DNA of 15,806 bases from a virus (IMGVR_UViG_643348547_000009), one strand, 5' to 3'; positions 1,462 to 15,806 are shown, counted from the stretch's first letter. Translations and numbers: made by a program. Notes: generated from the sequence alone by a model not told the origin.

Positions 1462-1584
1462 ATATGTCCTTTTATCACTATATCAAGACAAACCATTGAT
1501 TTAATTAAATAATCTTCACTGCAAAAAGTGCCAAAAATCGCAAATTGACTACACCATTAACTACACCGTTCGGTGCACCGTATG

Positions 1585-1610
1585 AAACAACGTGGAACAA
1601 ATAGACACAA
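1585..1610. repeat. Three direct hexamer repeats (AAACAA, GAACAA, ACACAA) at exact 10 bp spacing; shares the 15-mer AACAACGTGGAACAA with 8861-8875
   Basis: Read directly: tgAAACAAcgtgGAACAAatagACACAAgaa. The 15-mer at 1586-1600 is identical to 8861-8875, and the flanks also align with indels. Confidence 0.6.
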
Positions 1611-1755
1611 GAAATATACAGGCGGATCATCTTTCCAGGGGGAAGCGCACCAATTCATGAGGGGCGTTAATGTCTATATGGGGATCTCCACCTACCTGGA
1701 TTTTTTTCCGGTTAAACGTTAATCAGGCTGGTGGGTTTTACCTGTTCTGTAGGAG

Positions 1756-1770
1756 TGGTCATTATGACCA
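1756..1770. repeat. Perfect 15 bp palindrome TGGTCATTATGACCA, copy 1
   Basis: Read directly; a 17 bp exact direct repeat GTGGTCATTATGACCAT is shared with 1850-1866. Confidence 0.7.
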
Positions 1771-1850
1771 TCCCTTATATCGTCCGAATGCCGGACGAAG
1801 GCACACATCAACCGTAACGAAAATCGTTATGGTTGCCTTGATGGTCTGCG

Positions 1851-1865
1851 TGGTCATTATGACCA
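1851..1865. repeat. Perfect 15 bp palindrome TGGTCATTATGACCA, copy 2
   Basis: Read directly; lies 95 bp downstream of copy 1 in the island/host junction zone. Confidence 0.7.
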
Positions 1866-1898
1866 TTCAGCCAATGACCTTAATCAGAATTTTTCGCT

Positions 1899-1922
1899 AA
1901 AAAATGACGTTGGCCACGTCAT
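1899..1922 (-). terminator. Candidate rho-independent terminator ending the packaging operon
   Basis: On the minus strand, inverted repeat ATGACGT / ACGTCAT (1904-1910 and 1916-1922) with a 5 nt loop, followed by a T6 run (A-run 1899-1904 on plus). About 70 nt downstream of the stop of ORF 1993-2274. Confidence 0.45.
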
Positions 1923-1992
1923 CCGGAAAGCACAAAATCACGTCGATTTTTAATGGATGGTTAAACCGTCTTTATCTCGATGTCCGTACGTA

Positions 1993-2274
1993 TTACGTAC
2001 GCAGTCGTTCCGGCTTCTTCCAGTGGTACGTTATTTTCTCCTTCTCCCGATACATCTCCACGCGGCGACGGTAGGCCAGCAACTCAAGAACTCTGGTTCG
2101 TATGTTGCGCATATCCACGCCATTAAGCTGGATACCATCACGGCGCATCACCTCAGCAACAACACGCGCATAATTTTCGGCTGTCACGCTGTCCGGCTGC
2201 GTGGTCTGTTCGTCAGCCTGCTGGTTGATTCCAGAGACGCGGCGGATTAATCGCAGTATTTCGGCTTCTGTCAT
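1993..2274 (-). CDS. Hypothetical 93 aa protein, last gene of the packaging operon
   Basis: ATG at 2274 with a GAGG Shine-Dalgarno 8 nt upstream; starts 13 nt after the TerL stop; basic C-terminus. I do not recognise the family. Confidence 0.5.
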   Translation of the reverse strand: MTEAEILRLIRRVSGINQQADEQTTQPDSVTAENYARVVAEVMRRDGIQLNGVDMRNIRTRVLELLAYRRRVEMYREKEKITYHWKKPERLRT

Positions 2275-2287
2275 GCTGCTGACCTCA

Positions 2288-3949
2288 TTACACCCCGCTA
2301 AATTCTTCCAGTTTCTGGCGGTGGCTGTCGCTTATATCAAAAGCAAAATCCTCATGCTCTGCCTGAAATGTACCAAACGCCATCAGTGCCGCTACGCTCG
2401 GGTCTATCTTGTTCGGTGATTTTTTCTTGTTCGGCTTGATATTGGCGTTCGCGTCACTCTGCATCACGACGTTACTCATCGACCAGGACAACACCGGATC
2501 GCCACGATGCACAATCACCCTGCGGTTAACAAAAACTTCGAACGATTTCGCCGCCGGACTGAATCTGAGGTAGGTTTGCGGGAACGGCTCCACCTCAAAG
2601 CCTGCCCCCTGTAATTGCGTTCTCAGGTGCGTGGCGTTCCACGTATCGAAGCCCACCAACCTGATATTAAATTTCTCGGCGTCCTGCATGATGTCATCTC
2701 TGATCCGGTCGTAATCAATGCAGTCGCCAGGCGTTGTGCATATCCAGCCCGCTTTAGCCCACTGGCGATAGACAGCGCGATTTTTATTGGCTGGGTTCTG
2801 TAGCTGGAACTCCGGCAGATAATGACGGGAAACCAGCATGATATTTTTACCGACCGGAAAGGCATAGCATACGCTGGAAATATCGCTGGTTGATGATAAG
2901 TCCAGCCCCGCGTAACACTCCTGACCGTGTAAATCTTCCTCCGTGAACGTTCCGGTACACTCAGCCCATGCACCATTACCCATCCACGGGGTAGTCCCCT
3001 GACACCAGATATTAAATCGCTTTGTCATCATCTCCACCCACTGCGACGGAATACCCCGCGCTTTCTGGATGGTTGAGGCCAGTTTTTCACGATCGACGGA
3101 AACATCGATGTTAGGGTTAGCCTTTATCCACATCGCCGGATCATCAACCTCGTTTTCGTCGTCCAGTTCGTAAATCAGTACAAAAATTGAATCGTTGACC
3201 TCTTCGCCGTCCAGGATCTGGCAGCAATAATCATAGTGCTGCTTACAGGCTGAAACGACGTTACTGCCCGATGTGGTAATGGCAAATAACAGCCCTTCGG
3301 GACGTGCGCCCATCCCCAGCTCAAGCGCGGAATAAACGCCGTTATCGGGGTGTAGGTGGTATTCGTCCACGATAGAAAGACTGGGGTTTGTCCCCTCGAT
3401 GGTTGCTGCTTTTGCTGCCAGCGGCTTTAACAGGCTGTTGCTTTTCGGGTGTATCACCTTATGCGCCTGAATATTCACCCGCCTGCGTAACGGTCGGGAT
3501 AAAAGGCACATCTGACGCGCATCATCAAAGACGATCCGCGCCTGGTCACGGCTCACCGCTGCGGTGTAGATATCCTGCTGACCGTTCTCCATAATCAGAA
3601 ACCAGTTAGCCAGAATCGCGGCGGTCGTGGATTTCGCATTTTTGCGCGGCACTTCGATAAAGGCGCTCGTGTATTTGCGCCGTCCGGTGGCCTTAACCTT
3701 AAAGCCGAGGATGCACGCAAAGGCGAACTGCTGCCACGGCTCCAGCTCAATGGGTCTGCCACGCATCGGTCCTTTTACGTGCGGGCACACCCTGGAAAAG
3801 GCAATAAACCGCTCCACAACCTCACGATCGAACGTGTAAAGGGGGCTTTTAAGGTCCGAAAAGTACCGTTTAACAGCCTGTTTTAACCGTTTACAGGCCG
3901 GAATTTTGCCCGTTTTTACGTCTTCTGCGTACTTATTCCAGGCGGTCAA
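2288..3949 (-). CDS. Phage terminase large subunit (553 aa)
   Basis: Walker-A-like PRKNAKST in the N-terminal ATPase region and an acidic nuclease-type C-terminal half; follows TerS directly. Start is TTG at 3949 with a GAGGA Shine-Dalgarno 5 nt upstream and overlaps the TerS 3' end by 17 nt; there is no in-frame ATG nearby. Confidence 0.88.
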   Translation of the reverse strand: MTAWNKYAEDVKTGKIPACKRLKQAVKRYFSDLKSPLYTFDREVVERFIAFSRVCPHVKGPMRGRPIELEPWQQFAFACILGFKVKATGRRKYTSAFIEVPRKNAKSTTAAILANWFLIMENGQQDIYTAAVSRDQARIVFDDARQMCLLSRPLRRRVNIQAHKVIHPKSNSLLKPLAAKAATIEGTNPSLSIVDEYHLHPDNGVYSALELGMGARPEGLLFAITTSGSNVVSACKQHYDYCCQILDGEEVNDSIFVLIYELDDENEVDDPAMWIKANPNIDVSVDREKLASTIQKARGIPSQWVEMMTKRFNIWCQGTTPWMGNGAWAECTGTFTEEDLHGQECYAGLDLSSTSDISSVCYAFPVGKNIMLVSRHYLPEFQLQNPANKNRAVYRQWAKAGWICTTPGDCIDYDRIRDDIMQDAEKFNIRLVGFDTWNATHLRTQLQGAGFEVEPFPQTYLRFSPAAKSFEVFVNRRVIVHRGDPVLSWSMSNVVMQSDANANIKPNKKKSPNKIDPSVAALMAFGTFQAEHEDFAFDISDSHRQKLEEFSGV

Positions 3950-4289
3950 GCTCGTCCTCTTCTTCTGTTTCCGGTGGATTTTTACGGCGGCTTATCGGGT
4001 CAAAACCGAGCAAGGAGGCCATTTTTATCATCACTCTTTCAGCGTCGGATTTTGCGCTTAATGCGGGGTTTCTGCTCTCGCCGCCCTGACTGTTAACAAT
4101 GCTGAACCCGCGCGCCGCAAGGTCTGCAACGGCTTTCCGGTAAATGGAGTAGTTGACGCAATACAGTTCCAGATTGCTCCAGTCGGCGGGGGTCAGGTCT
4201 CCCCGTTCCGCAAGCTGCCGCGATTTTTCCCGCCACTGCTTCACGGCGATATCATCCAGGTAGGCGGGGGCTTTCGGTGGTCTTGCCAT
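3933..4289 (-). CDS. Phage terminase small subunit, P27-like (118 aa)
   Basis: Small protein immediately upstream of and overlapping TerL, with an acidic C-terminal tail (ETEEEDELDRLE). The sequence resembles P27-family TerS as I remember it. Confidence 0.75.
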   Translation of the reverse strand: MARPPKAPAYLDDIAVKQWREKSRQLAERGDLTPADWSNLELYCVNYSIYRKAVADLAARGFSIVNSQGGESRNPALSAKSDAERVMIKMASLLGFDPISRRKNPPETEEEDELDRLE

Positions 4290-4340
4290 GCTTATTTTTC
4301 GTCAGATTATTTTTCAAAAAATTCCCGTGCATAAAAATTT

Positions 4341-4400
4341 GGGGAGGCGGTCGGTGCCCGGCGGGGTCGGGTTTGTCCTGAAAACGCCCCCCACCCCGTC
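4341..4400. other. Candidate cos / packaging recognition site in the HNH-TerS intergenic region
   Basis: GC-rich tract ggggaggcggtcggtgcccggcggggtcgggtttgtcctgaaaacgccccccaccccgtc, with a G-rich left end and a C-rich right end in inverted symmetry, lying between HNH and TerS where HNH-dependent cos sites usually sit. The first 10 nt (GGGGAGGCGG) resemble the start of the P2-type cohesive end GGCGAGGCGG, which I recall from memory. Confidence 0.35.
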
Positions 4401-4577
4401 ATACAGCCTCATCAGCGATTGCGGAAACATTCCATAACCTCGCGGTCACGGTCGGTTAATCGCTTCGCTGTGATGCGTTCTGCGCGTCCTGACGCTTTAT
4501 CTTTATGCCCTGTTTCCTGTGTCTTCCATGCGTCACGCTGCCTTATAAGTCCACGGATAAGGCGGTTTTGTTCCCGC

Positions 4578-5018
4578 TCATTCATCAGCGTCATACATCC
4601 AGTTATTGCGGTTAGCGGCCCGTTCTTCCTCTTCACGAAATCCACCTGCGGCACGCTTGCTTTTTGTTGCCGGATCAAGCCATTTCGTTTTCTGGTTATG
4701 GCACGCCTGACACAATGGTTGATGGTTCCATTCGGGCCAGAAGAGAACATCATCACCGCCATCGATGGGGATAATGTGATCCACCACCACGGCGGGCGTA
4801 TATATCCCCTTCTCAAGGCATCGCACGCATAACGGGTTTTTACTCAGATACATGGCGCGGTATTTGTCCCACTGTCTGGAGTACCCACGCGCGCGGCGGT
4901 GTCCTCGTCTGGCATCCTCTGCACGCCATGCCGCCCGCCTGTGCTCCTCACACTTGCCGGACTTCACGCGCCTGTTACAGCCTGGTTCTGTGCATCGTCT
5001 TAATGGTTGCCACGGCAT
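4578..5018 (-). CDS. HNH endonuclease, phage packaging-associated (146 aa)
   Basis: HNH-type motifs CVRCLEKG, VDHIIPIDGG and CQACHNQK; sits directly upstream of TerS as in HK97-like HNH/terminase systems. ATG at 5018 overlaps the stop of the upstream gene (ATGA). Confidence 0.85.
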   Translation of the reverse strand: MPWQPLRRCTEPGCNRRVKSGKCEEHRRAAWRAEDARRGHRRARGYSRQWDKYRAMYLSKNPLCVRCLEKGIYTPAVVVDHIIPIDGGDDVLFWPEWNHQPLCQACHNQKTKWLDPATKSKRAAGGFREEEERAANRNNWMYDADE

Positions 5019-5314
5019 CAGTACACCCCCACATCACGATAAACCGACCAGAGCATCCCTACAGCCAGCGGGATTTCTTTTGTGTCTCCATCCCCGACCG
5101 TGGCCCTGTATTCGTACAGTTGCGACACGTACATCATGCAGCCAATCTTTATGGCTGGCGTGAACTCCAGCCCGTCATCAAAGCGCCTGCCGATGTGTTT
5201 CTGGCACACCTCAAGCGCGGCGGCGATGTATCCGCTGATTAACTGGTCTTCCTCATTGCCATCAATGCGGCAATGGAGTTTCACTTCTTCCAGGGTGATT
5301 AATTCTGCTGTCAT
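5018..5314 (-). CDS. Head-tail connector protein, gp6-like (98 aa)
   Basis: N-terminal LEEVKLHCRIDGNEEDQLISGYIAAA pattern typical of gp6-like connector proteins; start and stop overlap neighbours by ATGA. Confidence 0.7.
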   Translation of the reverse strand: MTAELITLEEVKLHCRIDGNEEDQLISGYIAAALEVCQKHIGRRFDDGLEFTPAIKIGCMMYVSQLYEYRATVGDGDTKEIPLAVGMLWSVYRDVGVY

Positions 5315-5649
5315 CGTGGCGCACCTGTTTTACAAAGAATTTCCAGACGAGTCCTTTTACCGTCGGGAACGGGGGGGCCAACAATATCAAGCTCATTGCC
5401 GGAATAAGCCCCCGTGAGTACCCGTATCCGGCTGGATGCCGTAACATCCACACGAAAACGGATCCAGACTCTTACGGTTGCCTGTGCCGTTTCTGCACCT
5501 GCGGTCATGCGTTCCCGTCCGCTGATCCCTTTCACCTCCGCCCATACGGTGGCAACATCCTCCCATGTGCTTTTCATTGCACCGGAAGGGAGGCGGGAAA
5601 GTTTCGCGCTCATGATGACAATGCGATCCCTCATGCTCCCCGCTCTCAT
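5311..5649 (-). CDS. Phage head closure / head-tail joining protein (112 aa)
   Basis: Size, position between portal and connector, and resemblance to the head closure protein family; ATGA overlap with the portal stop. Confidence 0.68.
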   Translation of the reverse strand: MRAGSMRDRIVIMSAKLSRLPSGAMKSTWEDVATVWAEVKGISGRERMTAGAETAQATVRVWIRFRVDVTASSRIRVLTGAYSGNELDIVGPPVPDGKRTRLEILCKTGAPR

Positions 5650-6860
5650 GATTTGCCCTCTTTATCATCCTTTACTTCGATCTCCTGTTTCCAGGCCTGG
5701 CTGAACTCATCGCCACCATCACGCGGCGATAATCCCTCACGTTCGCGGGCTTCGTTCGGGCACATAACGCCGGACTTGATGCCGCGTTCATAGGTGGCAA
5801 AGCGTTCGCCAGGTGTGGCCCGTAACAGATCCGCGCTGTCAAACTCCACCTGATACCGGATACCAGGTACAGGCGAGGCCACCAGCAAAGCATTTTTTAT
5901 CTGCTGCTCAAAGTTCGCCAGCCACGGGCGCATCGTCATGGTGAGAAATGCGCGGCTTGCCTCGCTGAAATTGCTGTAGGTGCTGTTGCTGTATTCCTGC
6001 AGAAAAATCGGCGAGACGTTGAACATTCGGGCGATGTCTTCAATGGTGAAGCGACGGGAGGCCAGCCATTCAGCATCCTGGTTACTCATGCCAAGCTGCT
6101 GATAGCTCATACCCCCTTCAAGAATGGGCGTTTTTCCGGCGTTTCTGGCTCCTTTGTAGCGTTCCAGTGCGGCTAATGCCTGTTTGCCCTTCACGCCGTC
6201 CAGCCATTCGCCTGACGTGATAACCCCTGCTGCCATCATGCCATCACGCATCACGCTCGCGCCGTGGCGCTGTTGGGCCAGCCCAAGCCCCAGCGATTCG
6301 CGGCAGATGGTCACAGGTGAGCGCCCCATAAAGCCGTCATCCGTGGAGTAACGAAGGTGGAGAACCTCCCACGGTAAATAGTTGCGGGTGTTTCCGCTGT
6401 AAGCGTCAGTGATGCGGTAACGCCAGTTATGTTCCCCTGTCTGCTCAACATTCACCGACTGCGGCGGGTAAGGGTGCAAAGCCACTGGAAAACCATCACG
6501 CCCCCACTGAATCACCGCATAAGCATTACCGTTTAACAGGCAGTGGCGGACCATCATTCGCTTAAACTGATAGGGCGTCTGCCACGCGTTCGGGCGCTCG
6601 TTGAGGATATGATCGACCGGATGAGAATCAAGCCACTCGCGGGCCTCCTTCCCCTTCTCATTGCGTACCAGGTACAGGTAGCATGGCATAGTAGCCACCG
6701 CCTCAGAGATGACCGTGACGGCGTTCATGACGGCGGGGAGTGATTCCGCTGTCCCCGATGATACGTACTCACCCGCCCCCGTGTTCGATGTGCCAGCCAG
6801 CGCCATAAATTCATCCAGCGTCATGCTGCGATGCTCTTGTTTTCGTCTGAAAGGCCACAT
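5646..6860 (-). CDS. Phage portal protein, HK97 family (404 aa)
   Basis: About 400 aa protein adjacent to the prohead protease with an acidic C-terminal tail; GGGGG Shine-Dalgarno about 6 nt upstream of the ATG at 6860. Confidence 0.88.
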   Translation of the reverse strand: MWPFRRKQEHRSMTLDEFMALAGTSNTGAGEYVSSGTAESLPAVMNAVTVISEAVATMPCYLYLVRNEKGKEAREWLDSHPVDHILNERPNAWQTPYQFKRMMVRHCLLNGNAYAVIQWGRDGFPVALHPYPPQSVNVEQTGEHNWRYRITDAYSGNTRNYLPWEVLHLRYSTDDGFMGRSPVTICRESLGLGLAQQRHGASVMRDGMMAAGVITSGEWLDGVKGKQALAALERYKGARNAGKTPILEGGMSYQQLGMSNQDAEWLASRRFTIEDIARMFNVSPIFLQEYSNSTYSNFSEASRAFLTMTMRPWLANFEQQIKNALLVASPVPGIRYQVEFDSADLLRATPGERFATYERGIKSGVMCPNEAREREGLSPRDGGDEFSQAWKQEIEVKDDKEGKS

Positions 6861-6861
6861 A

Positions 6862-7437
6862 TCACACCCCCGCTAAATCCGCCCACCAGCGGCGATTATC
6901 CGCGCGTGGCATTTTTTCGGGGTGCTGCTCATACAGGGAACGGCGGGCCAGATCCACGCCGGAATCAGGGTAAGCCGGTACGGATGTAACGGTAATTTCG
7001 TACAGTTCCGCCACCAGCACGGTGCGCACGCATGGATCTGTTGTGGTATCCCATACATCCTTACGGGAACGAAAGCCAAAGCTCATCCCCGAGATATCAC
7101 CACGCTTAACCAGTTCGATAACGTCCCGCCCTGTACTGGTATCCGGTGGGGTCAGTTCAAAGCGTAACCCTGTTTCATCCTCTTCCAGTTTCAGCGTACC
7201 GGAACGGGTACGCCCCAGTAACATGCTGTGGTCGTGCTCATACAGGCCGCGAACGTCATTACCCGCCGCCAGCCACTCACTGAACGCCCCCCGCTGGAAT
7301 TTTTCGTAAAACTCACCCCATAGCAGATCAGAAAGGTTATTCCAGCGAACAACGTAACCCGTCAGCGTACTGGCTCCGCTGGTGGTGATTTCTGATGACC
7401 GGATTTCCATGCTCTTTTTCATATTTTTTTCACCCAT
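6862..7437 (-). CDS. HK97-family prohead protease (191 aa; start may instead be the ATG at 7422)
   Basis: Conserved protease-family segments LYEHDHS, GRTRSGTL and GMSFGF. The ATG at 7437 has no good Shine-Dalgarno; the in-frame ATG at 7422 has GGTGA about 9 nt upstream. Confidence 0.85.
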   Translation of the reverse strand: MGEKNMKKSMEIRSSEITTSGASTLTGYVVRWNNLSDLLWGEFYEKFQRGAFSEWLAAGNDVRGLYEHDHSMLLGRTRSGTLKLEEDETGLRFELTPPDTSTGRDVIELVKRGDISGMSFGFRSRKDVWDTTTDPCVRTVLVAELYEITVTSVPAYPDSGVDLARRSLYEQHPEKMPRADNRRWWADLAGV

Positions 7438-7445
7438 AAAACACC

Positions 7446-7468
7446 AAAGGGGCTTTTTAGCCCCTTTT
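7446..7468 (-). terminator. Stem-loop plus U-rich tract between the capsid and protease genes (candidate attenuator)
   Basis: Inverted repeat AAAGGGGC / GCCCCTTT (8 bp stem, 6 nt loop) 4 nt after the capsid stop; on the minus strand it is followed by GGTGTTTT and then the protease ATG. Confidence 0.4.
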
Positions 7469-7472
7469 TCTG

Positions 7473-8645
7473 TTAACCGCCGTTTTTCATCTCGAGGACT
7501 TTTATCGCGCGGGAGTCAACAACCCCGCCGCCGATGTATTTGTCCGTGTGTACCTTGTAGAAACCCGGCTCTGTAATGTTGTCCGGTCGGGTACGAATAC
7601 CCGTTTCATGGTCAACGATGAAATAACCGCGCTTAAAGTCACCGACAGCCAGCGGCGTTTTGCCTTTGCCGATGTCCGGCATACTTTCCAGGTAATAAAC
7701 AGGACGGCCCAGCAATGTGTCAGGTGCGCCCTCTTTGAGGCTGTCACGCCATACGTAATCACCGCTCTGGTTTTTCAGCTTCTGCAATGCTGCCGCTGTG
7801 CTCGAGTTCATCACCCATACGGCGTTCTTACGGTATTTCGCTTTCAGCTTGTAGAGGATGTCGATCAGTTCGTCCGCTGTAATGGCGGCTTCGGCTGCTG
7901 CTACCATTTTTTCAATGGTGCCAAAGGCGCGGGTTTTGTCGTTGGTTAGATCTCGGTTGTAACTCAGGAAACCTTTCGGCTTGCCAGTACCATTACCATT
8001 TACAAAATCATCTTCTTCGGTCGTGGCGAACGTATCGGCGATTTCAGACGATAACCAGCCCAGTACGTCCACCTCTGAAAAATCCAGAATTTCCTGTGTG
8101 GTTTTCGGGTAGGCATAGATCGGGTTAAGTTTGATGCTTACGCGCTCAACTTTCGGGGTGTTGGTTTCGTTACGCTTGCTGCCCTCGGTTCCATAATTTA
8201 CAGCCGCGCCACCTGTGGAAACCAGTTTCTGATATTCGTTTGATTTCGCCGTTTTCACGGTCGCAATCATTCGCATGACGCTTTCATCACTCAGTAACCG
8301 CATGACCTCGCGATCAAGCTCAGGGATAACGGTATAGCCACCGTCCTTGCCGCTGTTGCTAGTGGTGGATAATGAGCGAACGTCACCCGTTACGATGTAA
8401 TTGCGAAGTTCTGCGGGGTCAGTGGTCTGGCTGGCTTTACCTGGCTTGCTGCGCTCTTCGTCTGCAATGGCTTCAAGGCGGGAAATGTCTTTATCGAGGG
8501 ATTCAGCTTTAGCGCGTAATTCGTCAAATTTTGCGCCCTCAGCATCGTTAAGACTGCGGTTTTCTTTTTCCGCGTTCTCCAGCATGTCGCGCATCTGATT
8601 TTTAATGGCGGTTTTCTGCTGGCGTAATTCGATTATTCTCGGCAT
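7473..8645 (-). CDS. Major capsid protein, HK97 fold (390 aa)
   Basis: N-terminal coiled-coil scaffold-like delta domain (ELRQQKTAIKNQMRDMLENAEKE...), about 390 aa, adjacent to the prohead protease; ATG at 8645. Confidence 0.92.
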   Translation of the reverse strand: MPRIIELRQQKTAIKNQMRDMLENAEKENRSLNDAEGAKFDELRAKAESLDKDISRLEAIADEERSKPGKASQTTDPAELRNYIVTGDVRSLSTTSNSGKDGGYTVIPELDREVMRLLSDESVMRMIATVKTAKSNEYQKLVSTGGAAVNYGTEGSKRNETNTPKVERVSIKLNPIYAYPKTTQEILDFSEVDVLGWLSSEIADTFATTEEDDFVNGNGTGKPKGFLSYNRDLTNDKTRAFGTIEKMVAAAEAAITADELIDILYKLKAKYRKNAVWVMNSSTAAALQKLKNQSGDYVWRDSLKEGAPDTLLGRPVYYLESMPDIGKGKTPLAVGDFKRGYFIVDHETGIRTRPDNITEPGFYKVHTDKYIGGGVVDSRAIKVLEMKNGG

Positions 8646-8859: not shown

Positions 8860-8885
8860 GAACAACGTGGAACAACCACGAACAA
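8860..8885. repeat. Three GAACAA direct repeats at exact 10 bp spacing in the packaging-operon upstream region
   Basis: Read directly: cGAACAAcgtgGAACAAccacGAACAAataa; shares a 15-mer with 1586-1600. Confidence 0.6.
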
Positions 8886-8904
8886 ATAATTTACAAAACA
8901 TGAC

Positions 8905-8925
8905 AAAAAGCCGGATTGCTCCGGC
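8905..8925 (-). terminator. Candidate rho-independent terminator after the perC-like gene
   Basis: On the minus strand, GCCGGA-gcaa-TCCGGC (6 bp stem, tetraloop) followed by TTTTTGTCATGTTTTG, starting 7 nt after the perC-like stop. Confidence 0.5.
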
Positions 8926-8932
8926 TGTGTGA

Positions 8933-9205
8933 TTATCTGTCCTGGTAATTTCGCCATATTTCATCACCAGCACCATCCATACCCATTTCGGCATAAGTGC
9001 GATCGACCGCCTTTTTCAGGTCTCCGTAATTATCCGGCGGCTCCGGTGGCCTCTGTGCCTTCCTGGAACATTCCAGCCGTCGCATCGTGATGTGATGCCG
9101 TTCCTTGTCTGTCTCCACCAGTTGCATGACTTCACCCCATCGCGCCGACGCTCTCCGGTAAAAGCCTTTCGCCTCCAGTTCTTCCGCTATGCGGTCATGT
9201 ACCAT
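8933..9205 (-). CDS. PerC-family transcriptional regulator-like protein (90 aa)
   Basis: N-terminal pattern MVHDRIAEELEAKGFYRRASARW matches my recollection of PerC-family proteins; strong Shine-Dalgarno (GAGGGGGG); last gene before the head module. Confidence 0.55.
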   Translation of the reverse strand: MVHDRIAEELEAKGFYRRASARWGEVMQLVETDKERHHITMRRLECSRKAQRPPEPPDNYGDLKKAVDRTYAEMGMDGAGDEIWRNYQDR

Positions 9206-9214: not shown

Positions 9215-9625
9215 TCAGAACGGAATATCATCACCGTAAGGGTCATCGCCTCCCGCTGGTGGCTGATTACCCTGTGTGCCTGTGGTCTTGCGTCGGCTCC
9301 CACCAGGTCGCGCCGTTCTGGCACTGATTACGCTGTCTGCAATAACCTGCCAGCCCTGCCGCGTTTCGCCGTTCTGGCCTGTCCACTGGCTTACCTGCAT
9401 GTTACCCGCCACGCTCACCAGCTCGCCTTTGTGGTGTTTTGCCAGTGCGTCGGCCTGTCTGCCAAACGCCAGGACGGATAACCACATCGTCGCCTGTCCG
9501 TCATCTGCCTGATTGCACGGCAGGGGGACCGCCATGCTTGCCATAGCCATTTGTGTGCCCTTGCTGGTGGTCTTTAACTGCGGGTCAGCCACCAGCCGCC
9601 CGTAAGCGGCTATCTGTGCTGTCAT
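9215..9625 (-). CDS. ssb: Single-stranded DNA-binding protein (136 aa)
   Basis: OB-fold-like N-terminal region alignable with E. coli SSB, a Gly/Pro/Gln-rich linker, and the acidic C-terminal tip DDIPF. Confidence 0.8.
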   Translation of the reverse strand: MTAQIAAYGRLVADPQLKTTSKGTQMAMASMAVPLPCNQADDGQATMWLSVLAFGRQADALAKHHKGELVSVAGNMQVSQWTGQNGETRQGWQVIADSVISARTARPGGSRRKTTGTQGNQPPAGGDDPYGDDIPF

Positions 9626-9879
9626 GATTCCACCTCTCCGGTTTTAACGTTGATGGTTGTTACCTGTTCCGCTTCGGCAATCTCCCGTTCCGTCAGCGTG
9701 GCAAAGTTTGCCGCCGCCGTGGTCATGAATGCGCTTATCAGGTCGGGATGTGCTTTCGCGTATCCTTCCCCCGTGTTGCGGTCGATGATTTTTATCGCCA
9801 CTCTCAGCCAGTGCTCTGTAAGGTCAATGGCGCGGTTATGCTGCTTCTTCTGATTATTAAGTTTTCCTGATGTGCGCAT
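9622..9879 (-). CDS. Hypothetical 85 aa protein between the ori and ssb
   Basis: ATG at 9879 with a GAGGGGG Shine-Dalgarno upstream; stop overlaps the ssb start (ATGA). Function unknown. Confidence 0.5.
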   Translation of the reverse strand: MRTSGKLNNQKKQHNRAIDLTEHWLRVAIKIIDRNTGEGYAKAHPDLISAFMTTAAANFATLTEREIAEAEQVTTINVKTGEVES

Positions 9880-9928
9880 TTTTATTTTTACCCCCTCGTT
9901 TAAAAAGTTTTGAGTTGTGCCTCCCCTT

Positions 9929-10154
9929 GTCTACCTTATCTACCTTACTGGCTCTCATGCCAGTAATGGCGCGGCTTTCAGCGGGGTAGAGTGCTTTTAT
10001 CCACTATCTACCCCGTATCTACCTCCCTGTCTGATTCAGGTAAAATCAGGTAGAGAGGGTAGATAGTAGGTAGACAGTGAAAAAAGGCTGTCTACCTAAG
10101 TTAATATACTGAATTAAATGTATTTTTCTTTACTCAGGTAGACAGGGTAGACAG
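9929..10154. repeat. Candidate replication origin: about 11 iterons with core GGTAGA / TCTACC in both orientations, plus an AT-rich stretch
   Basis: TCTACC at 9931, 9940, 10007, 10018 and 10091; GGTAGA at 9985, 10049, 10058, 10069, 10138 and 10147. AT-rich segment at about 10100-10130. Located immediately 3' of the primase gene. Confidence 0.65.
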
Positions 10155-10167
10155 CCATTGCAAAAAA

Positions 10168-11916
10168 TTATAAAAACGCGTCGCAATCGTCTGTTGTTAT
10201 TGCGTTAGTCTGCGTTACTCCCTTAACTTTCCGCGTAATATATTCATGTCCGTAAACTTTCGCGGCTGGCTTCATAGCCTTGCCAAAGTCATTTACGTTT
10301 AGCGGTTTGCTCCTGCCTGCGTATGCCATAAACGCCAGATAGACGCGGTAAAGGCTGTTTCTGGTCGTGTACTTCACTGAATCGCCACCGCCACCCATCA
10401 TCAGGCCGCGCGCTTCCTCCAGAAAATTCAGGAACTGGCAAAACTCAATAACCGGATCCGTCTGTTGCTTTATTGCCAGTGCTTCATCACCGTCACGCTG
10501 TTCCAGTAGTAAAGCCCGTGCCTTCTCAGGGTCGGTAAAGTTCGCCAGCAAGCGGCGGATAATGACAGGGATTTCAGCCGCGATCTTTTCCGGTAGCTCC
10601 CTGTCTTTTTCTGCCTCGCTTACGATATTGTCGAAGCGGAAAATAACCCGACGACGTGACACGCCTCCGGCCCGTTCGGTGAATATCATCGGGTTGTTAT
10701 TGGTCGCCAGCACCACCGCCCTGATTACCGTAGTGAAACGCTTTTCATATTTCGGGTTGATTTCCACGGGGTCGCCGCCCGTGATTTTCTTGATGCCCGT
10801 GCCTTCGCCTGTATATTTCGGCTGGTCTGCCAGGACGATAAGACGACTCCCGACAACCTGCGCACGCCCACCAGCATCATCAAGCGATGTCATTTCCGCG
10901 CTTACCGTGTTTTGTTTCCCCGCTAAAAGGCTGGCGATGTGGGTGAATGTACTTTTGCCGCTCCCGCCGTCTCCGGTGGCCTCAATAAACATCTGCCAGT
11001 CGTACCGGTTCGCCATAATCATGTACAGCGCGGCACATATACGCATCATCTTGCGCGAGTCTTTTCCGGCTGCGTGCTCAAGCCATTTATGAAAGTTTGG
11101 CGCGTTATCGCGGATGTTCTCCCCTGGTGCTGGTGGCGTGTACTCAATGCCGTTGTTCGTGGTGATCCAGTTCTCCGGCGTGTGCGGGGAAAATTCCCCC
11201 GTTTTCAGGTCAAGCGCACCATTGGCGAACGGCAGCAAATCGCCGGACGGCTCGCCCATTGGTTCGGCAATAACTTTTAACGCTTCCACGGCGTTATTGA
11301 TTACGCGCTTGCTGAAAGTGGCCCTGTGCTCTGAATAGATCGCCACCATTTCGCGGCTAAGTTCCATTGTGCTGACCGGACACCATACCCCGCCGCGCCA
11401 TACGTGAACGATTTCACTTTCCGGATGCACACAAACGCCATCAAATCGACCAGCAAGCATCTGTGCGCGCTCACTGTCTGCCATTTGTGCCAGTTGCGTA
11501 TTTTTCTGCTCCGGCATGGTAAGCCCTGCGGCAATATTTTCACGCTCAGCATTCAGATAGCGCCGCCAGTTTTCACACTTCTGGACGTGCATTCCTTCGG
11601 GGTAAAAATTTGCGTCCTGAATATCTGCCGCCGCCAGCTTCTGACCAATCTTTTTGGTCTCCACCAAATCCAGTTCTCCGGCCTGGTACAGCCTTACGCG
11701 TTTTTTTCCATCCGGAACAATTTTCAGTGCATCAAGTTCGGCAAGCTGATTTGGCCCAAGCCACACAGGCGGCACATTATCGCCGGATGCGGGGCCATCC
11801 TGCTCCTGCCATTGTTTCGCGTGCGACCAGGCATCACTACCCGCGAAAATAATTACCTCTGTGTCTTTGTGTTTTATTCCGCGTGGCTGTTTTTTTACGT
11901 TCGGTGCCAGTTTCAT
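10168..11916 (-). CDS. Phage/plasmid primase-helicase, P4 family (582 aa)
   Basis: Walker A motif GDGGSGKST in the C-terminal NTPase domain and a primase-like N-terminal half; ATG at 11916 with an AGGGG Shine-Dalgarno; followed by the iteron region. Confidence 0.88.
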   Translation of the reverse strand: MKLAPNVKKQPRGIKHKDTEVIIFAGSDAWSHAKQWQEQDGPASGDNVPPVWLGPNQLAELDALKIVPDGKKRVRLYQAGELDLVETKKIGQKLAAADIQDANFYPEGMHVQKCENWRRYLNAERENIAAGLTMPEQKNTQLAQMADSERAQMLAGRFDGVCVHPESEIVHVWRGGVWCPVSTMELSREMVAIYSEHRATFSKRVINNAVEALKVIAEPMGEPSGDLLPFANGALDLKTGEFSPHTPENWITTNNGIEYTPPAPGENIRDNAPNFHKWLEHAAGKDSRKMMRICAALYMIMANRYDWQMFIEATGDGGSGKSTFTHIASLLAGKQNTVSAEMTSLDDAGGRAQVVGSRLIVLADQPKYTGEGTGIKKITGGDPVEINPKYEKRFTTVIRAVVLATNNNPMIFTERAGGVSRRRVIFRFDNIVSEAEKDRELPEKIAAEIPVIIRRLLANFTDPEKARALLLEQRDGDEALAIKQQTDPVIEFCQFLNFLEEARGLMMGGGGDSVKYTTRNSLYRVYLAFMAYAGRSKPLNVNDFGKAMKPAAKVYGHEYITRKVKGVTQTNAITTDDCDAFL

Positions 11917-12212
11917 TTTTTACCCCTGAATACGTTAAGCATCTTTTTTATTTCCTGAATATTGGCGCGTGCTTTCTCCCTGCTGGTGGGCACGTTACGC
12001 GGTACGGCCTGCACCAGAGAAAAATCACGATCGAACTGATAAACAGGCATCACGCAATCATATTCGTAGCCTTCACGACGGTAGGTTACGCGCCGTTCCT
12101 CCACGCCCTTAATCATTACCATGCCGCCATATTTATCGCGGTAAATATCGCCGTTCATAAATTCAGGACGAGCGGGGCCGCTGGCAGTAACGCCAGAATT
12201 TTTATTTTTCAT
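11913..12212 (-). CDS. Small hypothetical protein (99 aa), possibly DUF4222-like (tentative)
   Basis: ATG at 12212; stop overlaps the primase start (ATGA). The RDKYGGMVMIKGVEERRVTYRREGYEYDCVMP segment resembles small proteins I recall upstream of P4-family primases. Confidence 0.5.
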   Translation of the reverse strand: MKNKNSGVTASGPARPEFMNGDIYRDKYGGMVMIKGVEERRVTYRREGYEYDCVMPVYQFDRDFSLVQAVPRNVPTSREKARANIQEIKKMLNVFRGKK

Positions 12213-12217
12213 GTTTT

Positions 12218-12445
12218 TTATTCTCCGGTGTGCTGCGCTTTATTATTCTCGTGAATTGCCATCACTGTATTTAATTCATTAATAACAGGCGTTAATAGCG
12301 TACGCACGGCAGAAAACATCATTGAATCAGATTCATCGCCACTTTCCGGCACATCAATTAACTTAAGTAGTAATGCGTCCATTTCCTTTGCGCGGATTAA
12401 TGCGTTTTCAGAATGAACAAGAACATCAAAGGGTATTTTATGCAT
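12218..12445 (-). CDS. Hypothetical 75 aa protein
   Basis: ATG at 12445 preceded by AGGGGGGGA; start overlaps the last codons of the upstream Icd-like ORF (ATGCATAA). The longer 109 aa reading in the ORF track has no Shine-Dalgarno. Confidence 0.5.
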   Translation of the reverse strand: MHKIPFDVLVHSENALIRAKEMDALLLKLIDVPESGDESDSMMFSAVRTLLTPVINELNTVMAIHENNKAQHTGE

Positions 12446-12902
12446 GACTCCCCCCCTGGCGAATACGGGCGACAAAAATAAGATGTGCGTGCGGCAGCTG
12501 TGCACGTGCTTCGCGCTCAGTGGCAGCGGTAACGGTGAATATTGCAATACTGTCTGTCAGGCACTGCATAAAGCGCCAGACAAAATAAGGGCGTGCGAAT
12601 ACAGCCATGTGAAAGGCTCCCAGATGAATTTTAAGGAGTCTCGCTACTACGCTGCTAAACATGGTGGCGAGACGTAACAGGGTTAGCAGACTGGTCATCT
12701 GGAAACCAGCGAGCACAAAGGCTCCCCCGTTACGCCCCGCCATAATGCGGGTATGGGTAGGTTTACGGACACAAAAAAACCGCTTATCGGATGTGGGCGG
12801 CTGTCCGCCAGATGTATTCAGGCTGCTAAACCCGGTCGCCATGTGGGCGACGGGGGAAGCATACAGCCCCGTGATAATTTTTTGCAAGCGGTTTTTACGC
12901 AT
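12438..12902 (-). CDS. Icd-like (P4 cell-division-inhibitor family) domain protein, copy 1; full ORF is 154 aa, and an internal start at 12608 would give 56 aa
   Basis: C-terminal WRF...ATEREARAQ...FVARIRQGGSHA is paralogous to the C-terminus of copy 2. The ATG at 12902 has an AGGGG Shine-Dalgarno and overlaps the copy 2 stop; the ATG at 12608 has a GGGAG Shine-Dalgarno. Confidence 0.45.
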   Translation of the reverse strand: MRKNRLQKIITGLYASPVAHMATGFSSLNTSGGQPPTSDKRFFCVRKPTHTRIMAGRNGGAFVLAGFQMTSLLTLLRLATMFSSVVARLLKIHLGAFHMAVFARPYFVWRFMQCLTDSIAIFTVTAATEREARAQLPHAHLIFVARIRQGGSHA

Positions 12903-13098
12903 GATGTGACCCCTGACGAATACGGGCGGCGAATACCATCACGCAGCCAGCCGGGGATTGCTGGCGTGCCTCCTGTTCGCTGGTGGCCTCAATGGTAATC
13001 ACGCGCGGTTGTGCCGTGCTCAGGGCGATAAAACGCCAGATGTATTTATTCAGGTTGTGCGAATCCCGCCCTTGCGGGTGTGTGGTATGATTTAACAT
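12895..13098 (-). CDS. Icd-like small protein, copy 2 (67 aa)
   Basis: ATG at 13098 with GAGG 5 nt upstream; ...KYIWRF...ATSEQEARQQ...FAARIRQGSHHA. The long upstream in-frame extension (353 aa ORF) is Cys/Arg-rich and antisense to plus-strand genes, so it is treated as non-coding. Confidence 0.5.
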   Translation of the reverse strand: MLNHTTHPQGRDSHNLNKYIWRFIALSTAQPRVITIEATSEQEARQQSPAGCVMVFAARIRQGSHHA

Positions 13099-13192
13099 AG
13101 CTACCTCGATACTTTCGCTATCGTTGGTGGTTAGAAGCCCCGTTACTGCTCCTACAGTGCGGGGTTTCGTCGTTTCTACACCTTGCCTTAAT

Positions 13193-13249
13193 AAGGTGTT
13201 GAACACCAATTTAAATCGAGGTGTTAAACACGTCAAGTGTTGAACACTT
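13193..13249. promoter_or_regulatory. Three palindromic operator-like sites GTGTT-N-AACAC in the divergent control region
   Basis: GGTGTTgAACACC at 13195-13207, GTGTTaAACAC at 13221-13231, and the perfect 15 bp site AAGTGTTgAACACTT at 13235-13249; centres are spaced 25 and 16 bp apart. Confidence 0.55.
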
Positions 13250-13268
13250 ATTTTTTTTCCTGCATACT
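13240..13268 (+). promoter_or_regulatory. Candidate sigma70 promoter for the plus-strand RHH gene, overlapping operator 3
   Basis: TTGAAC at 13240-13245, a 17 bp spacer containing a T8 run, and CATACT at 13263-13268, about 30 nt upstream of the ATG at 13298. Confidence 0.3.
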
Positions 13269-13297
13269 GCATTTGTTTTTTATGAAGGGTGCTCAAC

Positions 13298-13477
13298 ATG
13301 GCGACAAAAGCAGTAAACGCAAAATCACAAACAGTTGCGGCAAGGGTTCCACATGAAGTTATGAACAATGTTGAGGCGGTAAAAATGCCCGGCGAAAGTA
13401 CAGGGCAGTTTGTTACAGCTGCATTAAAGCGGGAAGTTGAATACCGCCAGCGTCGCAAGGCCAAAGAATCAGAATAA
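13298..13477 (+). CDS. Small ribbon-helix-helix-like DNA-binding protein (59 aa), candidate island regulator
   Basis: ATG at 13298 (the ORF track starts at an upstream GTG at 13289); AAGGG 9 nt upstream. The pattern ARVPHEVMNNVEAV...GESTGQFVTAALKREV fits a beta-strand, helix, helix (Arc/CopG-like) layout. Confidence 0.5.
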   Translation: MATKAVNAKSQTVAARVPHEVMNNVEAVKMPGESTGQFVTAALKREVEYRQRRKAKESE

Positions 13478-13534
13478 TCACTATCAGCGCCGTGGCGTGA
13501 GGTACTCCGGCGCATTGCTTTACAGGTCAGTACT

Positions 13535-13744
13535 ATGAGCAAAAAACACCGATCAGCAGATGAGATTTTTGCAGAACAACGAAGATTGCTTTTGCAAAGT
13601 ATCATTTCACGCCAGCAAGAGAAGGCGCGAGCTAAACAAATGCCACCAAATACAGAACCAGCGCCTACAAGATTTGCGCTTGATGACTTTCTCGATAAAC
13701 ACCCCAGGGTAATGAAAGCAAACAAAAACCGCCCACCAGGCTGA
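13535..13744 (+). CDS. Hypothetical 69 aa basic protein, second gene of the plus-strand module
   Basis: ATG at 13535 with a weak Shine-Dalgarno; co-directional with the RHH gene and followed by a strong terminator; no family recognised. Confidence 0.35.
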   Translation: MSKKHRSADEIFAEQRRLLLQSIISRQQEKARAKQMPPNTEPAPTRFALDDFLDKHPRVMKANKNRPPG

Positions 13745-13839
13745 TCACATTGCCCACCAGCCTGATAGCGGCTATCATCCCCGTGCTTATGTTTGAGATC
13801 ACACACACAAACGGCGCAGCGGGTTATCTGTTCAGAAAG

Positions 13840-13870
13840 GCGGCTCCATTTCGGGGCCGCTTTTTTTATT
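13840..13870 (+). terminator. Rho-independent terminator of the plus-strand module
   Basis: GCGGCTCC-atttc-GGGGCCGC (8 bp stem with one G-U pair) followed by TTTTTTTATT. Confidence 0.6.
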
Positions 13871-14013
13871 CCTGAAAAACCCCAATTTTGTTGTTTTTCA
13901 GTTTCACCAGGGCGAACGAATCCCCGCCCACGTTCTGGCGTATATTCAATCTTCATGGTTATAGCTCTGTGTTCAGATGATTGATGTGTGGCGGCTGCGT
14001 GCCGCCAGCGTGA

Positions 14014-14202
14014 TTAATGAACTGCCTTGCAGCTATCCTTCCAGGCCAGAACCTCGGATAAAGACCAGCCAACGGAACGACCGCCAAGTTTACGACGTGA
14101 TGGGAATTGTCCGGCCTTTTCCAGGCGGTAGCGACACGTACGGCTAAGGCCGGTTAGTTTTTCGCATTCTTTTTCACGTATAAACCGATCAGTGCTTAAC
14201 AC
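14014..14202 (-). CDS. alpA: AlpA-family phage transcriptional regulator (62 aa)
   Basis: HTH segment LTGLSRTCRYRLEKAGQFPSRRKLGGRSVGWSLSEVLAW typical of the AlpA family; GTG start at 14202 with an AAGGGGG Shine-Dalgarno 5 nt upstream; immediately downstream of int. Confidence 0.8.
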   Translation of the reverse strand: MLSTDRFIREKECEKLTGLSRTCRYRLEKAGQFPSRRKLGGRSVGWSLSEVLAWKDSCKAVH

Positions 14203-14361
14203 TATTGCCCCCTTTCGTTTCTTAAAGAGTTATTTCGTGTTCTATTGCGTTGGGATGTGTCTGATTGTGTCAGGATGATTCAGAGTTGGCAAATGTTGAG
14301 GCCGTATGGTTTACAGAAAGAGGAATAATCAGGATAAAATCATTTAATTTCATGTTAATAC

Positions 14362-14396
14362 AAAGGCATAAAATATTGTTTCATGCCTTTTTTCTC
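14362..14396. terminator. Hairpin with flanking T-runs between int and alpA (weak, possibly bidirectional)
   Basis: AAAGGCAT / ATGCCTTT arms (14362-14369 and 14383-14390) with a 13 nt loop, then TTTTTT on the plus strand and TTTGTATT on the minus strand. Confidence 0.3.
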
Positions 14397-14576
14397 GCTA
14401 TTTAAAGAGTGATTCGCTAGTGTATAAAAAACCAGTAACACATTAAAAATCAGCTACTTATAAATCCGTACACTTTTTCGCCTCTTGTTCGTAGTTGTTC
14501 CGCATTGTTGCTCATTGTTGCACGTTGTATCTGTTCGCATATCCAGTATGCGCATACTGAAAAAACACGAAAAAAA

Positions 14577-15806
14577 TTATTTTCTTCTGGCTACTGGTAG
14601 CGTGGTTACGTTTTCATGTGTTCCCGCCAGTATCCCTAACCGCTCCGTCCACATATCCAGCGCATTGCGTTTAGCATCCAGATAACGGGAATGATTATAA
14701 ACTCGCTGCATTCCTGGCATCTGGTGGCCTGTAAGCTGCTCCACGACGTGAGGATCCACGCCTAAATCGCTCAGCATCGTTGTAAAGGTGCGCCGGATGT
14801 CATGTAGTGACCAGTGAGGGTGATTTAGCCTCCTGTGCGCTAATCTGCCGTACTGCGACACGCTTGTTTCCTGTTTCACTTCCCCCAGCAATAAGCCCGT
14901 GTGCCTGTTCTGCTCCACCAGCTGCGTGACGAACGGCAGTATTGCTTCCGGTATGGGCCGGAATATTGCCACCTTCGTTTTGCTGTGTTCTTTCGGCACG
15001 GTCCAGAGCATTTCGGTAAAATCCCACTCGCTGATCTCCGATAACCTCAGTTCTACCGTCCGGCATCCGAACACAATCAGGAGGCGGATTAACGCGATGT
15101 AGTAGGGGGAGAATATTTTTTTGTCCAGTGCCTGCAATAATTCGCCCAGTTCTTTGGTGCTTAAGACACGCTCGCTTATATCCGGTTTTTTCCCAACGTC
15201 CGCCACACTCATATCATCAAGAACGTTGCTGATTGCATAGCGCCGCCTCCGGCAGAACTTAAGCGCCTGTTTGCACGTCTGTAGCAAGAATCCGGCAGTA
15301 ACAGGCGTTCGCTTTGCCACCTGGTCAAAACAGGCCAGCCAGTGCCGTAGCTCGCATTTATCCAGCGGCATAGCACCAATGTGCTGTATTACGTGATTAT
15401 TAAGGCGCTTTTTCAGGGCGGCATAATCCACGCGGTTTTCCTTTGCGTACGACTCAAGCCAGTAGGTGAGCGCATCGCCAACCGTTACCGGCTTTAACGC
15501 TTCCTGTACGGTGTAATTAAGCTCATGACGTGGATTTTTCCCCTCTGCCAGCCATGCGCGACACTGGGCGGCTTTTTCCCTGGCTGATTTCAGGCTCAGA
15601 TCAGGATAATTTCCCAGCTTAATGCGTTCCGGTGGTGCCCCCCTTCCCGTTCCGGCCCTGTAAGTGAAATACCAGGTTAAAAGGCCACTGGTTGAATGCC
15701 TGACGCTCAGGTTTCCACCGTCATTAAGAAAGGCTGTTTTTTGGGCGGGTGTGCCGTTGATTTTCCTCAGCTGTGTATCGCTCAGTTTGTTAAGTGCTCT
15801 GCTCAT
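14577..15806 (-). CDS. int: Site-specific tyrosine integrase, P4-type (409 aa)
   Basis: ATG is formed by the last three bases of the window. N-terminal arm-binding-like domain, and a C-terminal catalytic region (...HDIRRTFTT...YNHSRYLD) consistent with the tyrosine recombinase R/H/R/Y arrangement. Confidence 0.93.
   Translation of the reverse strand: MSRALNKLSDTQLRKINGTPAQKTAFLNDGGNLSVRHSTSGLLTWYFTYRAGTGRGAPPERIKLGNYPDLSLKSAREKAAQCRAWLAEGKNPRHELNYTVQEALKPVTVGDALTYWLESYAKENRVDYAALKKRLNNHVIQHIGAMPLDKCELRHWLACFDQVAKRTPVTAGFLLQTCKQALKFCRRRRYAISNVLDDMSVADVGKKPDISERVLSTKELGELLQALDKKIFSPYYIALIRLLIVFGCRTVELRLSEISEWDFTEMLWTVPKEHSKTKVAIFRPIPEAILPFVTQLVEQNRHTGLLLGEVKQETSVSQYGRLAHRRLNHPHWSLHDIRRTFTTMLSDLGVDPHVVEQLTGHQMPGMQRVYNHSRYLDAKRNALDMWTERLGILAGTHENVTTLPVARRK

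Follow-up and report, generated by a model that had tools for sequence, protein, structure and literature searches.

What kind of element carries a complete set of phage head and packaging genes beside a host gene: a phage, the remnant of one, or a satellite? This question is raised by the DNA downstream of phoQ in the stretch IMGVR_UViG_643348547_000009, whose full 15,806 nt are referred to here as the window. The window was found to be a 100% match to Escherichia coli IAI39 (NC_011750.1, 2058702-2074507). Our analysis makes it very likely that the region is an intact capsid-forming phage-inducible chromosomal island (cf-PICI) integrated by a tyrosine integrase at the 3' end of phoQ, in the same attachment site (attB) as the prototype of the class. 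This reading is based on gene content, attachment-site (att) boundaries, gene order and orthology to EcCIEDL933, the prototype cf-PICI of E. coli O157:H7 EDL933 (Alqurainy et al., bioRxiv 10.1101/2022.09.08.507074; He et al., bioRxiv 10.1101/2025.02.11.637232).

Boundaries of the element

Alignment of the junctions against K-12 revealed the limits of the insertion. A 10-bp core direct repeat, AAATATGTCC, occurs in two copies 14,518 bp apart in IAI39, and the empty K-12 site holds a single copy within the 75-bp spacer between phoQ and roxA (ycfD). Because there are two copies in IAI39 and one in K-12, the element is a discrete 14.5-kb insertion (14,518 bp) between phoQ and roxA with both att sites preserved.

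1-1461, plus strand: phoQ, the host gene at the left edge of the window
1460-1469, no strand: attL core AAATATGTCC, overlapping the final 2 nt of the phoQ stop codon
1470-1992, no strand: non-coding left end of the element, 523 bp, in which RefSeq annotates no gene
1548-1567, plus strand: two tandem ACTACACC repeats, candidate arm-type sites for the integrase (Int), inside the repeat D2
15833-15852 (window-equivalent): the same tandem ACTACACC pair at the other end of the element, candidate Int arm-type sites
15978-15987 (window-equivalent), no strand: attR core AAATATGTCC, beyond the window end by about 172 bp

The insertion left phoQ intact, with the left boundary of the element at the phoQ stop codon. 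At the other end the element extends about 180 bp past the window end, and roxA begins 249 bp after the int start codon according to the RefSeq annotation; host genes are therefore found on both sides of the att-bounded unit. A preliminary description of this DNA had placed the end of the gene set about 0.5 kb from phoQ. This distance is correct for the last open reading frame (ORF), which lies 532 bp away, whereas the element already begins at the stop codon of phoQ. The motif ACTACACC would be expected 0.6 times in the 38-kb IAI39 locus; it has four matches there, all of them at one or the other end of the element. The 75-nt direct repeat D2, which is located inside the element on both arms, was considered as the att site and rejected, as the empty K-12 site shows that the short repeat (D11) is the core.

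Gene content and gene order

ORFs were assigned using Pfam, NCBIfam, PHROGs and PADLOC searches together with the RefSeq annotation. From position 1462 to the window end nearly everything is read on the minus strand, and all the core genes listed below are present at full length. The coding features are given in the order of transcription of the minus strand.

14577-15806, minus strand: tyrosine integrase (Pfam Arm-DNA-bind_3 and Phage_integrase), with its start codon at the window's last base
14014-14202, minus strand: AlpA regulator, excisionase-like (Pfam Phage_AlpA)
13298-13477, plus strand: YlcI/YnfO-family small protein (RefSeq, phrog_949)
12895-13098, minus strand: Icd-like protein, 67 aa (NF033153, E 1.5e-19; RefSeq)
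12438-12902, minus strand: ORF annotated as Icd-like, of which the C-terminal ~55 aa alone resemble Icd
12218-12445, minus strand: 75-aa ORF of unknown function (RefSeq, phrog_2196)
11913-12212, minus strand: DUF4222 protein (Pfam search)
10168-11916, minus strand: primase/D5-type helicase, pri-rep (Pfam D5_N, DUF5906 and Pox_D5)
9622-9879, minus strand: 85-aa ORF of unknown function (phrog_1231), 84% identical to its EDL933 counterpart
9215-9625, minus strand: SSB (Pfam SSB)
8933-9205, minus strand: PerC-family regulator (Pfam PerC, E 3e-43)
7473-8645, minus strand: HK97-fold major capsid protein with an N-terminal delta (scaffolding) domain (Pfam Phage_capsid, TIGR01554)
6862-7437, minus strand: HK97-family prohead serine protease (Pfam Peptidase_S78)
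5646-6860, minus strand: portal (Pfam Phage_portal, E 8e-92)
5311-5649, minus strand: head-closure protein of the tail-facing neck, called 'adaptor' in the cf-PICI papers (Pfam Phage_HCP)
5018-5314, minus strand: gp6-like head-tail connector (Pfam Phage_connect_1, TIGR01560)
4578-5018, minus strand: HNH endonuclease, packaging cofactor (Pfam HNH)
4412-4594, minus strand: 60-aa ORF, homolog of EcCIEDL933 gene 1792 (100% identity)
3933-4289, minus strand: TerS, P27 family (Pfam Terminase_4, TIGR01558)
2288-3949, minus strand: TerL (Pfam TerL_ATPase and TerL_nuclease)
1993-2274, minus strand: 93-aa ORF of unknown function in the variable slot after terL (phrog_1561), 89% identical to its EcCIEDL933 counterpart

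Transcription runs from int and alpA through a variable Icd-like stretch to DUF4222, primase, the 85-aa ORF, SSB, PerC and capsid; the capsid is followed by protease, portal, head closure, connector, HNH, the 60-aa ORF, TerS, TerL and the 93-aa ORF. The preliminary description had listed int, alpA, a P4-family primase, ssb and an HK97-type head and packaging set, and the Pfam and NCBIfam searches bear out this list. It had also described the set as co-directional, which holds for nearly all of the genes but not for two small annotated ORFs on the plus strand (13298-13477 and 13535-13744).

Analysis of all the element ORFs with Pfam, PHROGs and PADLOC revealed no match to tail, lysis, P4 sid, psu, delta or epsilon, or rpp-type families, in agreement with the lack of tail, lysis and sid/psu/delta-type genes stated in the preliminary description. 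The largest non-coding gap in the element (523 bp) leaves no room for tail or lysis genes. Of the parts that mark a complete temperate HK97-like phage, neither a repressor or lysogeny switch, nor a tail module, nor a lysis cassette was found between the att sites (Pfam, PHROGs, RefSeq). PADLOC identified no defence genes among the accessory ORFs.

The SatelliteFinder model for cf-PICIs consists of 11 core components and forbids tail and holin genes. All 11 components (int, alpA, primase, capsid, protease, portal, two neck proteins, HNH, TerS and TerL) were found in the IAI39 element, and tail, holin and lysis genes are absent from it. The size of the island is within the range for cf-PICIs (~10-18 kb), with att repeats at its limits and int at one end, here the roxA end. 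Its early module combines an AlpA-type regulator with a primase-replicase and an origin of its own, nine iterons adjoining the primase gene. The capsid, protease and portal are its own and score far above the Pfam and NCBIfam cut-offs, and both neck proteins, Phage_HCP and Phage_connect_1, are encoded. The order capsid-protease-portal-neck-hnh-terS-terL is that of proteobacterial cf-PICIs. Relatedness to true phages is low, as found in this class: among the full-size phages of the phage collection, capsid identity to IAI39 is at most 38%. The membership of the cf-PICI class proposed in the preliminary description is thus in line with every feature of the class that can be read from sequence, and with the close mosaic relationship to EcCIEDL933 at the same site.

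The head and packaging genes belong to phage-derived HK97-type families, and the region might on this ground be taken for what decay has left of a full HK97-like prophage, its head module, after loss of the tail and lysis genes. We consider this origin very unlikely. A unit of exactly 14.5 kb is delimited by precise att repeats and flanked at either end by host genes; the gene order is that of cf-PICIs, not the terS-terL-portal-protease-capsid order of phages HK106 and Evi; a satellite-type int-alpA-primase module and an own origin are present; at least 125 E. coli genomes and 80 IMG/VR loci show this architecture as well; and the capsid remains distant from that of any true phage, as given above. 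The preliminary description had itself named tail or lysis genes beyond the integrase, or signs of decay such as a host junction inside the module, as findings that would speak against its reading. Beyond the integrase the host gene roxA was found instead, and the module is intact within its att repeats and contains no internal host junction.

Relationship to the prototype EcCIEDL933

The comparison with E. coli genomes and described cf-PICIs, suggested in the preliminary description, revealed, besides the genomes with the same architecture, a syntenic island in the same phoQ-roxA site of EDL933. The capsid gene product of this island is identical, over the aligned length, to PDB chain 9GYI_B, and He et al. 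(bioRxiv 10.1101/2025.02.11.637232) give PDB 9GYI as the structure of the EcCIEDL933 capsid. This identifies the EDL933 island as the published cf-PICI prototype. The same structure is the best PDB match of the IAI39 capsid (9GYI, E 1e-173). A text search of the literature, with supplementary tables outside its scope, found no paper naming both IAI39 and PICI.

The two islands share attB, orientation and gene order. AlpA, HNH, the gene 1792 homolog and TerS are 100% identical between them, followed by Int (99.8%), TerL (98.2%), portal (96.8%), protease (95.3%), PerC (88%) and SSB (82%). The IAI39 island is 14.5 kb in size, compared to 15.4-15.5 kb for EcCIEDL933. Its replication protein is a 582-aa P4-family primase, whereas EcCIEDL933 has a 710-aa DUF927 protein; the C-terminal 162 aa of the primase alone resemble EcCIEDL933 Rep (68%). 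The accessory region from alpA to DUF4222 also differs and in IAI39 includes a C4 RNA. The IAI39 island is a mosaic member of an already described kind of element.

For the prototype, much has been shown by experiment in the cf-PICI preprints. EcCIEDL933 is induced by HK106 and HK446, and its induction and transfer need alpA. Each gene of the capsid and packaging module is required for transfer and dispensable for replication, and mutation of gene 1792 severely reduces transfer. The capsids are small (T=4, 47.5 nm), consist of island-encoded protein and contain island DNA only; the helper tail genes are the sole helper virion requirement. DNA-filled tail-less capsids are released and are later able to join free tails (cf-PICI preprints).

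Proposed cycle and position of cos

Orthology to EcCIEDL933 suggests a helper-induced, AlpA-dependent cycle with small capsids and tail borrowing for IAI39 as well. In such a cycle a helper phage would turn alpA on, and the 14.5-kb element would be excised by AlpA and Int and replicated from the iteron origin by the P4-family primase/helicase. Small (T=4-type) HK97-fold heads would be built from the island capsid protein, protease and portal, and a 14.5-kb genome would be expected to fit a T=4 head. The island HNH-TerS-TerL set would cut at the island cos and fill the heads with island DNA only. Head closure and connector would complete the neck, which would accept the non-contractile tail of an HK97-like lambdoid phage, and lysis would also come from the phage.

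In HNH-dependent HK97-type packaging, cos lies upstream of terS. The corresponding region of the island is as follows.

4290-4411, no strand: putative cos region, a spacer rich in G/C runs upstream of terS

The site is tentatively assigned to this spacer because both ends of the linear GenBank record of vB_KppS-Ant, a packaged relative, fall within its homologous counterpart.

A divergent capsid and neck cassette

Comparison with EcCIEDL933 in a 150-nt sliding window revealed two divergent cassettes, at about 8400-7445 and 5700-5048, in a packaging module that is otherwise 93-100% identical. The capsid is a chimera, its delta domain being 94.6% and its mature shell 61% identical to EcCIEDL933, and the head-closure protein (50.9%) and the connector (74.5%) are likewise divergent. 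Among 5,426 complete E. coli genomes, only three (IAI39, ZH063 and SB0258h1) carry these capsid/neck cassette alleles.

An island at the same site in E. coli O7:K1 CE10 (L090), compared by its RefSeq annotation only, has a backbone nearly identical to that of IAI39 (97% nt identity over 90%). The two strains share RefSeq accessions for TerL, TerS, the 93-aa ORF, PerC, SSB, AlpA and one Icd-like protein; the accessions differ for capsid (385 aa in CE10), protease, portal, head closure and connector. Because the backbone is shared with CE10 but the head/neck alleles differ, the head/neck segment of IAI39 (compared over 5018-8400) is read as a replacement, and the island looks like a CE10-type backbone with a foreign head/neck segment. 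The reverse combination was found in an IMG/VR element (L008), in which protease, portal and both neck proteins are 100% and the capsid 99% identical to IAI39, with Int at 77% and AlpA at 66%. These comparisons provide evidence that cf-PICI backbones exchange the head/neck module as one unit.

Tail fit has been shown to depend on the adaptor and the connector, which determine the tails that can be used (He et al., bioRxiv 10.1101/2025.02.11.637232). IAI39 probably has a tail compatibility of its own. As these two proteins set the tail fit, and as head closure is, of all the island proteins, the one closest to HK97-like siphophages, lambdoid non-contractile tails of its own specificity are predicted for the island. 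A wider proposal is put forward tentatively, and as a whole we hold it to be somewhat doubtful: that the cassette swap in a CE10-type backbone, with a new shell fused to the resident delta domain and a new neck, alters tail compatibility or host reach relative to EcCIEDL933, and that the phased TTGTTY boxes described below may be AlpA operators coupling excision to capsid production.

Several points weigh against an intact and working cf-PICI. A capsid made of a prototype-like delta domain and a divergent shell could in principle assemble differently or poorly, and the SxGxxAD motif, present at the maturation site in EcCIEDL933 and HK97 (cf-PICI preprints), is not conserved in the IAI39 capsid. 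The cos position is deduced from a relative, and induction, small capsids, tail borrowing and the kind of tail that fits are ascribed to IAI39 by homology to EcCIEDL933.

These points lead to a further explanation, in which the island is a cf-PICI by descent but dead, owing to its recombinant cassette or to the want of a matching helper, and is now fixed and immobile in the IAI39 lineage. The rarity of the cassette alleles and the joined capsid would fit such a history. The core ORFs, however, are all full length and within a few residues of the prototype lengths, and both att cores are intact. In addition, the occurrence of a near-identical head/neck module beside a different integrase in L008 points to a module that is maintained and exchanged as a unit. 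We judge a dead island to be unlikely, and an intact cf-PICI remains the preferred reading.

Packaging-operon control region and phased repeats upstream of alpA

Pattern searches revealed repeated boxes at the element ends and upstream of alpA and the capsid gene.

1586-1600, minus strand: TTGTTY box of the left arm, TTGTTCCACGTTGTT, two repeats 10 bp apart
26420-26434 of the 38-kb IAI39 locus (L001): TTGTTY box of the right arm, ~75-90 bp beyond the window end
14485-14509, plus strand: three phased TTGTTY repeats in the int-alpA spacer, upstream of alpA (pattern search)
8861-8885, minus strand: three phased TTGTTY repeats ~220 bp upstream of the capsid gene (pattern search)
8646-8932, minus strand: packaging-operon control region, holding the perC hairpin, the 15-mer and TTGTTY repeats
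8882-8896, minus strand: conserved 15-mer TTGTAAATTATTTGT (also written TTGTAAATTATYTGT) of the packaging-operon control region
8909-8926, minus strand: perC terminator-like hairpin (pattern match)
7446-7467, minus strand: G+C-rich stem-loop between the capsid and protease genes, terminator-like by pattern match only

TTGTTY repeats phased by 10 bp gave six overlapping matches at four places in the 38-kb locus, all within the element, against 0.07 expected. A 14-mer from these boxes, ACAACGTGRAACAA, occupies the same three positions in the IAI39, RM6927 and EDL933 islands. It is a reasonable guess that the boxes share one regulator, most simply the Xis-like AlpA, which would tie together excision, autoregulation and the late operon.

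The 15-mer at 8882-8896 recurs in 58 of 89 loci, ~230 bp upstream of the start codon of the capsid gene; these loci include islands with a capsid only 70% identical and with different Int and AlpA. The 15-mer probably belongs to the core of the late (packaging) promoter region. A consensus promoter and terminator scan was no richer in the element than in shuffled sequence and was used for the two individual hairpins only.

Replication origin and C4 RNA in the early region

The primase scored 109.9 bits against TIGR01613 (primase, P4 family), just above the cut-off of 108.7. Three non-coding features accompany it.

9929-10152, no strand: replication origin, nine GGTAGAY iterons in both orientations around an A+T-rich tract
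12660-12747, minus strand: C4-type antisense RNA (Rfam RF01695, 72.7 bits against a gathering score of 45)
12815-12864, minus strand: a1/b1-type target of the C4 RNA (RF03163, 45.5 bits, just under the gathering score of 46.7; E 9e-10)

An iteron origin had been part of the preliminary description, and nine of the ten GGTAGAY matches in the window do fall within 9929-10152; the number expected for the window as a whole is 1.8. The C4 RNA and its a1/b1 target sit upstream of the Icd-like ORF and the primase operon, and may form an RNA switch controlling the replication operon. C4-type antisense RNA together with Icd-like genes is a type of regulatory module known in phages P1 and P7. The ORF at 12438-12902 covers the C4 RNA and the RNA's targets with its 5' part. 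Most of this ORF and of another long one, at 12895-13956, is spurious, the real features being the short Icd-like genes, the C4 RNA and the a1/b1 target. At the gathering threshold, Rfam gave no match in the EDL933 and RM6927 loci.

The P4-family primase domain, the AlpA regulator and the C4-type antisense RNA with Icd-like genes are the features by which the island most resembles a P4-like satellite or a classical PICI, an element that remodels or redirects the capsids of its helper. Such an assignment is scarcely credible here, as P4 and classical PICIs have no capsid, protease, portal or TerL of their own and the island has all of these complete, while none of its ORFs belongs to the sid, psu, delta or rpp-type families. 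Furthermore, the SatelliteFinder PICI model forbids portal and neck genes.

Relatives of the island and a tape-measure gene after terL

Capsid, protease and portal were found in all 80 IMG/VR relatives and the other head and packaging genes in most of them, the rest being short or truncated contigs. HK106- or Evi-type tail tube, neck Ne1, tail terminator, holin and lysin were found in none of the 80. Capsid matches of ~70% in the phage collection include records of 15-16.5 kb, for example vB_KppS-Ant and Pasteurella Pmp8.

A tape-measure gene was observed directly after terL, inside the element, in nine of the 80 relatives (L037, L039, L042, L053, L054, L058, L062, L063 and L069; for example L069 13456-16761) and in vB_KppS-Ant. 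Each of the nine IMG/VR copies is full length (~1,100 aa), lies on the same strand as terL and starts 14-17 bp after it; that of vB_KppS-Ant (GenBank LR881103.1, L088 2036-4333) encodes 765 aa. The Pfam domains represented are TMP_3, HK97 TLTM and lambda Tape_meas_lam_C. The tape-measure gene is followed by an hpt-like phosphoribosyltransferase host gene in L069, by a 178-aa ORF in L037 and by lambda M-, L- and K-like genes in L063. A satellite tape-measure gene is 86% identical at the nucleotide level to that of an ordinary HK97-like prophage of E. coli ET245. In IAI39 the corresponding slot is occupied by the 93-aa ORF. The junction of terL and tape measure is absent from the 5,426 complete E. 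coli genomes and from the GTDB representative genomes, and no discussion of this arrangement was found in the cf-PICI preprints.

Other observations were made at the left end and around the island. The palindrome GGTCATTATGACC occurs twice in the left-end region (1757-1769 and 1852-1864, 95 bp apart) and once each in the EDL933 and RM6927 islands; an Rfam search of this 0.5-kb region gave no family reaching the threshold and nothing credible. Just past roxA, and outside the window, an IS3/IS629-family element interrupts pepT (L001 27861-32673); the IS element itself carries a group II intron (ltrA) and appears unrelated to the island. On the other side, also outside the window (L001 1-4712), a truncated site-specific integrase adjoins icd, with an IS3-interrupted STM2901-family gene nearby; the region looks like a remnant at an e14-type insertion site. 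A second, partial match to the island is present elsewhere on the IAI39 chromosome and may be another satellite sharing early-module genes.

Comparison with known systems

The element offers no new principle: tail-borrowing, capsid-forming satellites were described in 2022/2023 and tail-less particles in 2025, and the prototype resides at the same locus. Its value lies in the comparison. IAI39, CE10, EDL933 and the IMG/VR element L008 form a natural series in which the shell and neck are swapped on near-identical islands, a contrast suited to mapping the determinants of tail compatibility and capsid size. The TTGTTY boxes are a concrete candidate for the AlpA link between excision and late-gene expression. 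The relatives that bear a tape-measure gene raise the question of how strictly 'tail-less' the cf-PICI family is.

Comparison with HK97-like siphophages revealed a shared HK97-fold capsid, S78 protease, portal, gp6/gp7-type neck and HNH-assisted cos packaging in the island and in HK106 and Evi. These phages are ~40 kb in size, have full tail and lysis modules and order their genes terS, terL, portal, protease, capsid, whereas the IAI39 island has neither tail nor lysis genes and a different gene order. The head-closure protein is the island protein closest to this group (63% to Evi Hc1 and 56% to HK106 Hc1), compared to 25-30% for capsid and portal. HK106 is a proven helper of EcCIEDL933 (cf-PICI preprints).

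With P4 the island shares an integrase, an AlpA-type regulator, a P4-family primase and dependence on a helper for virion parts. P4 uses the helper capsid protein, resized by Sid, and the helper terminase, whereas the IAI39 island has its own capsid and terminase and is without sid, psu and delta. Classical PICIs redirect packaging into helper capsids via Rpp or TerS. Those of proteobacteria (EcCICFT073 type) are without portal, neck and TerL, whereas the IAI39 island encodes a portal, two neck proteins and TerL, as does EcCIEDL933 at the same attB.

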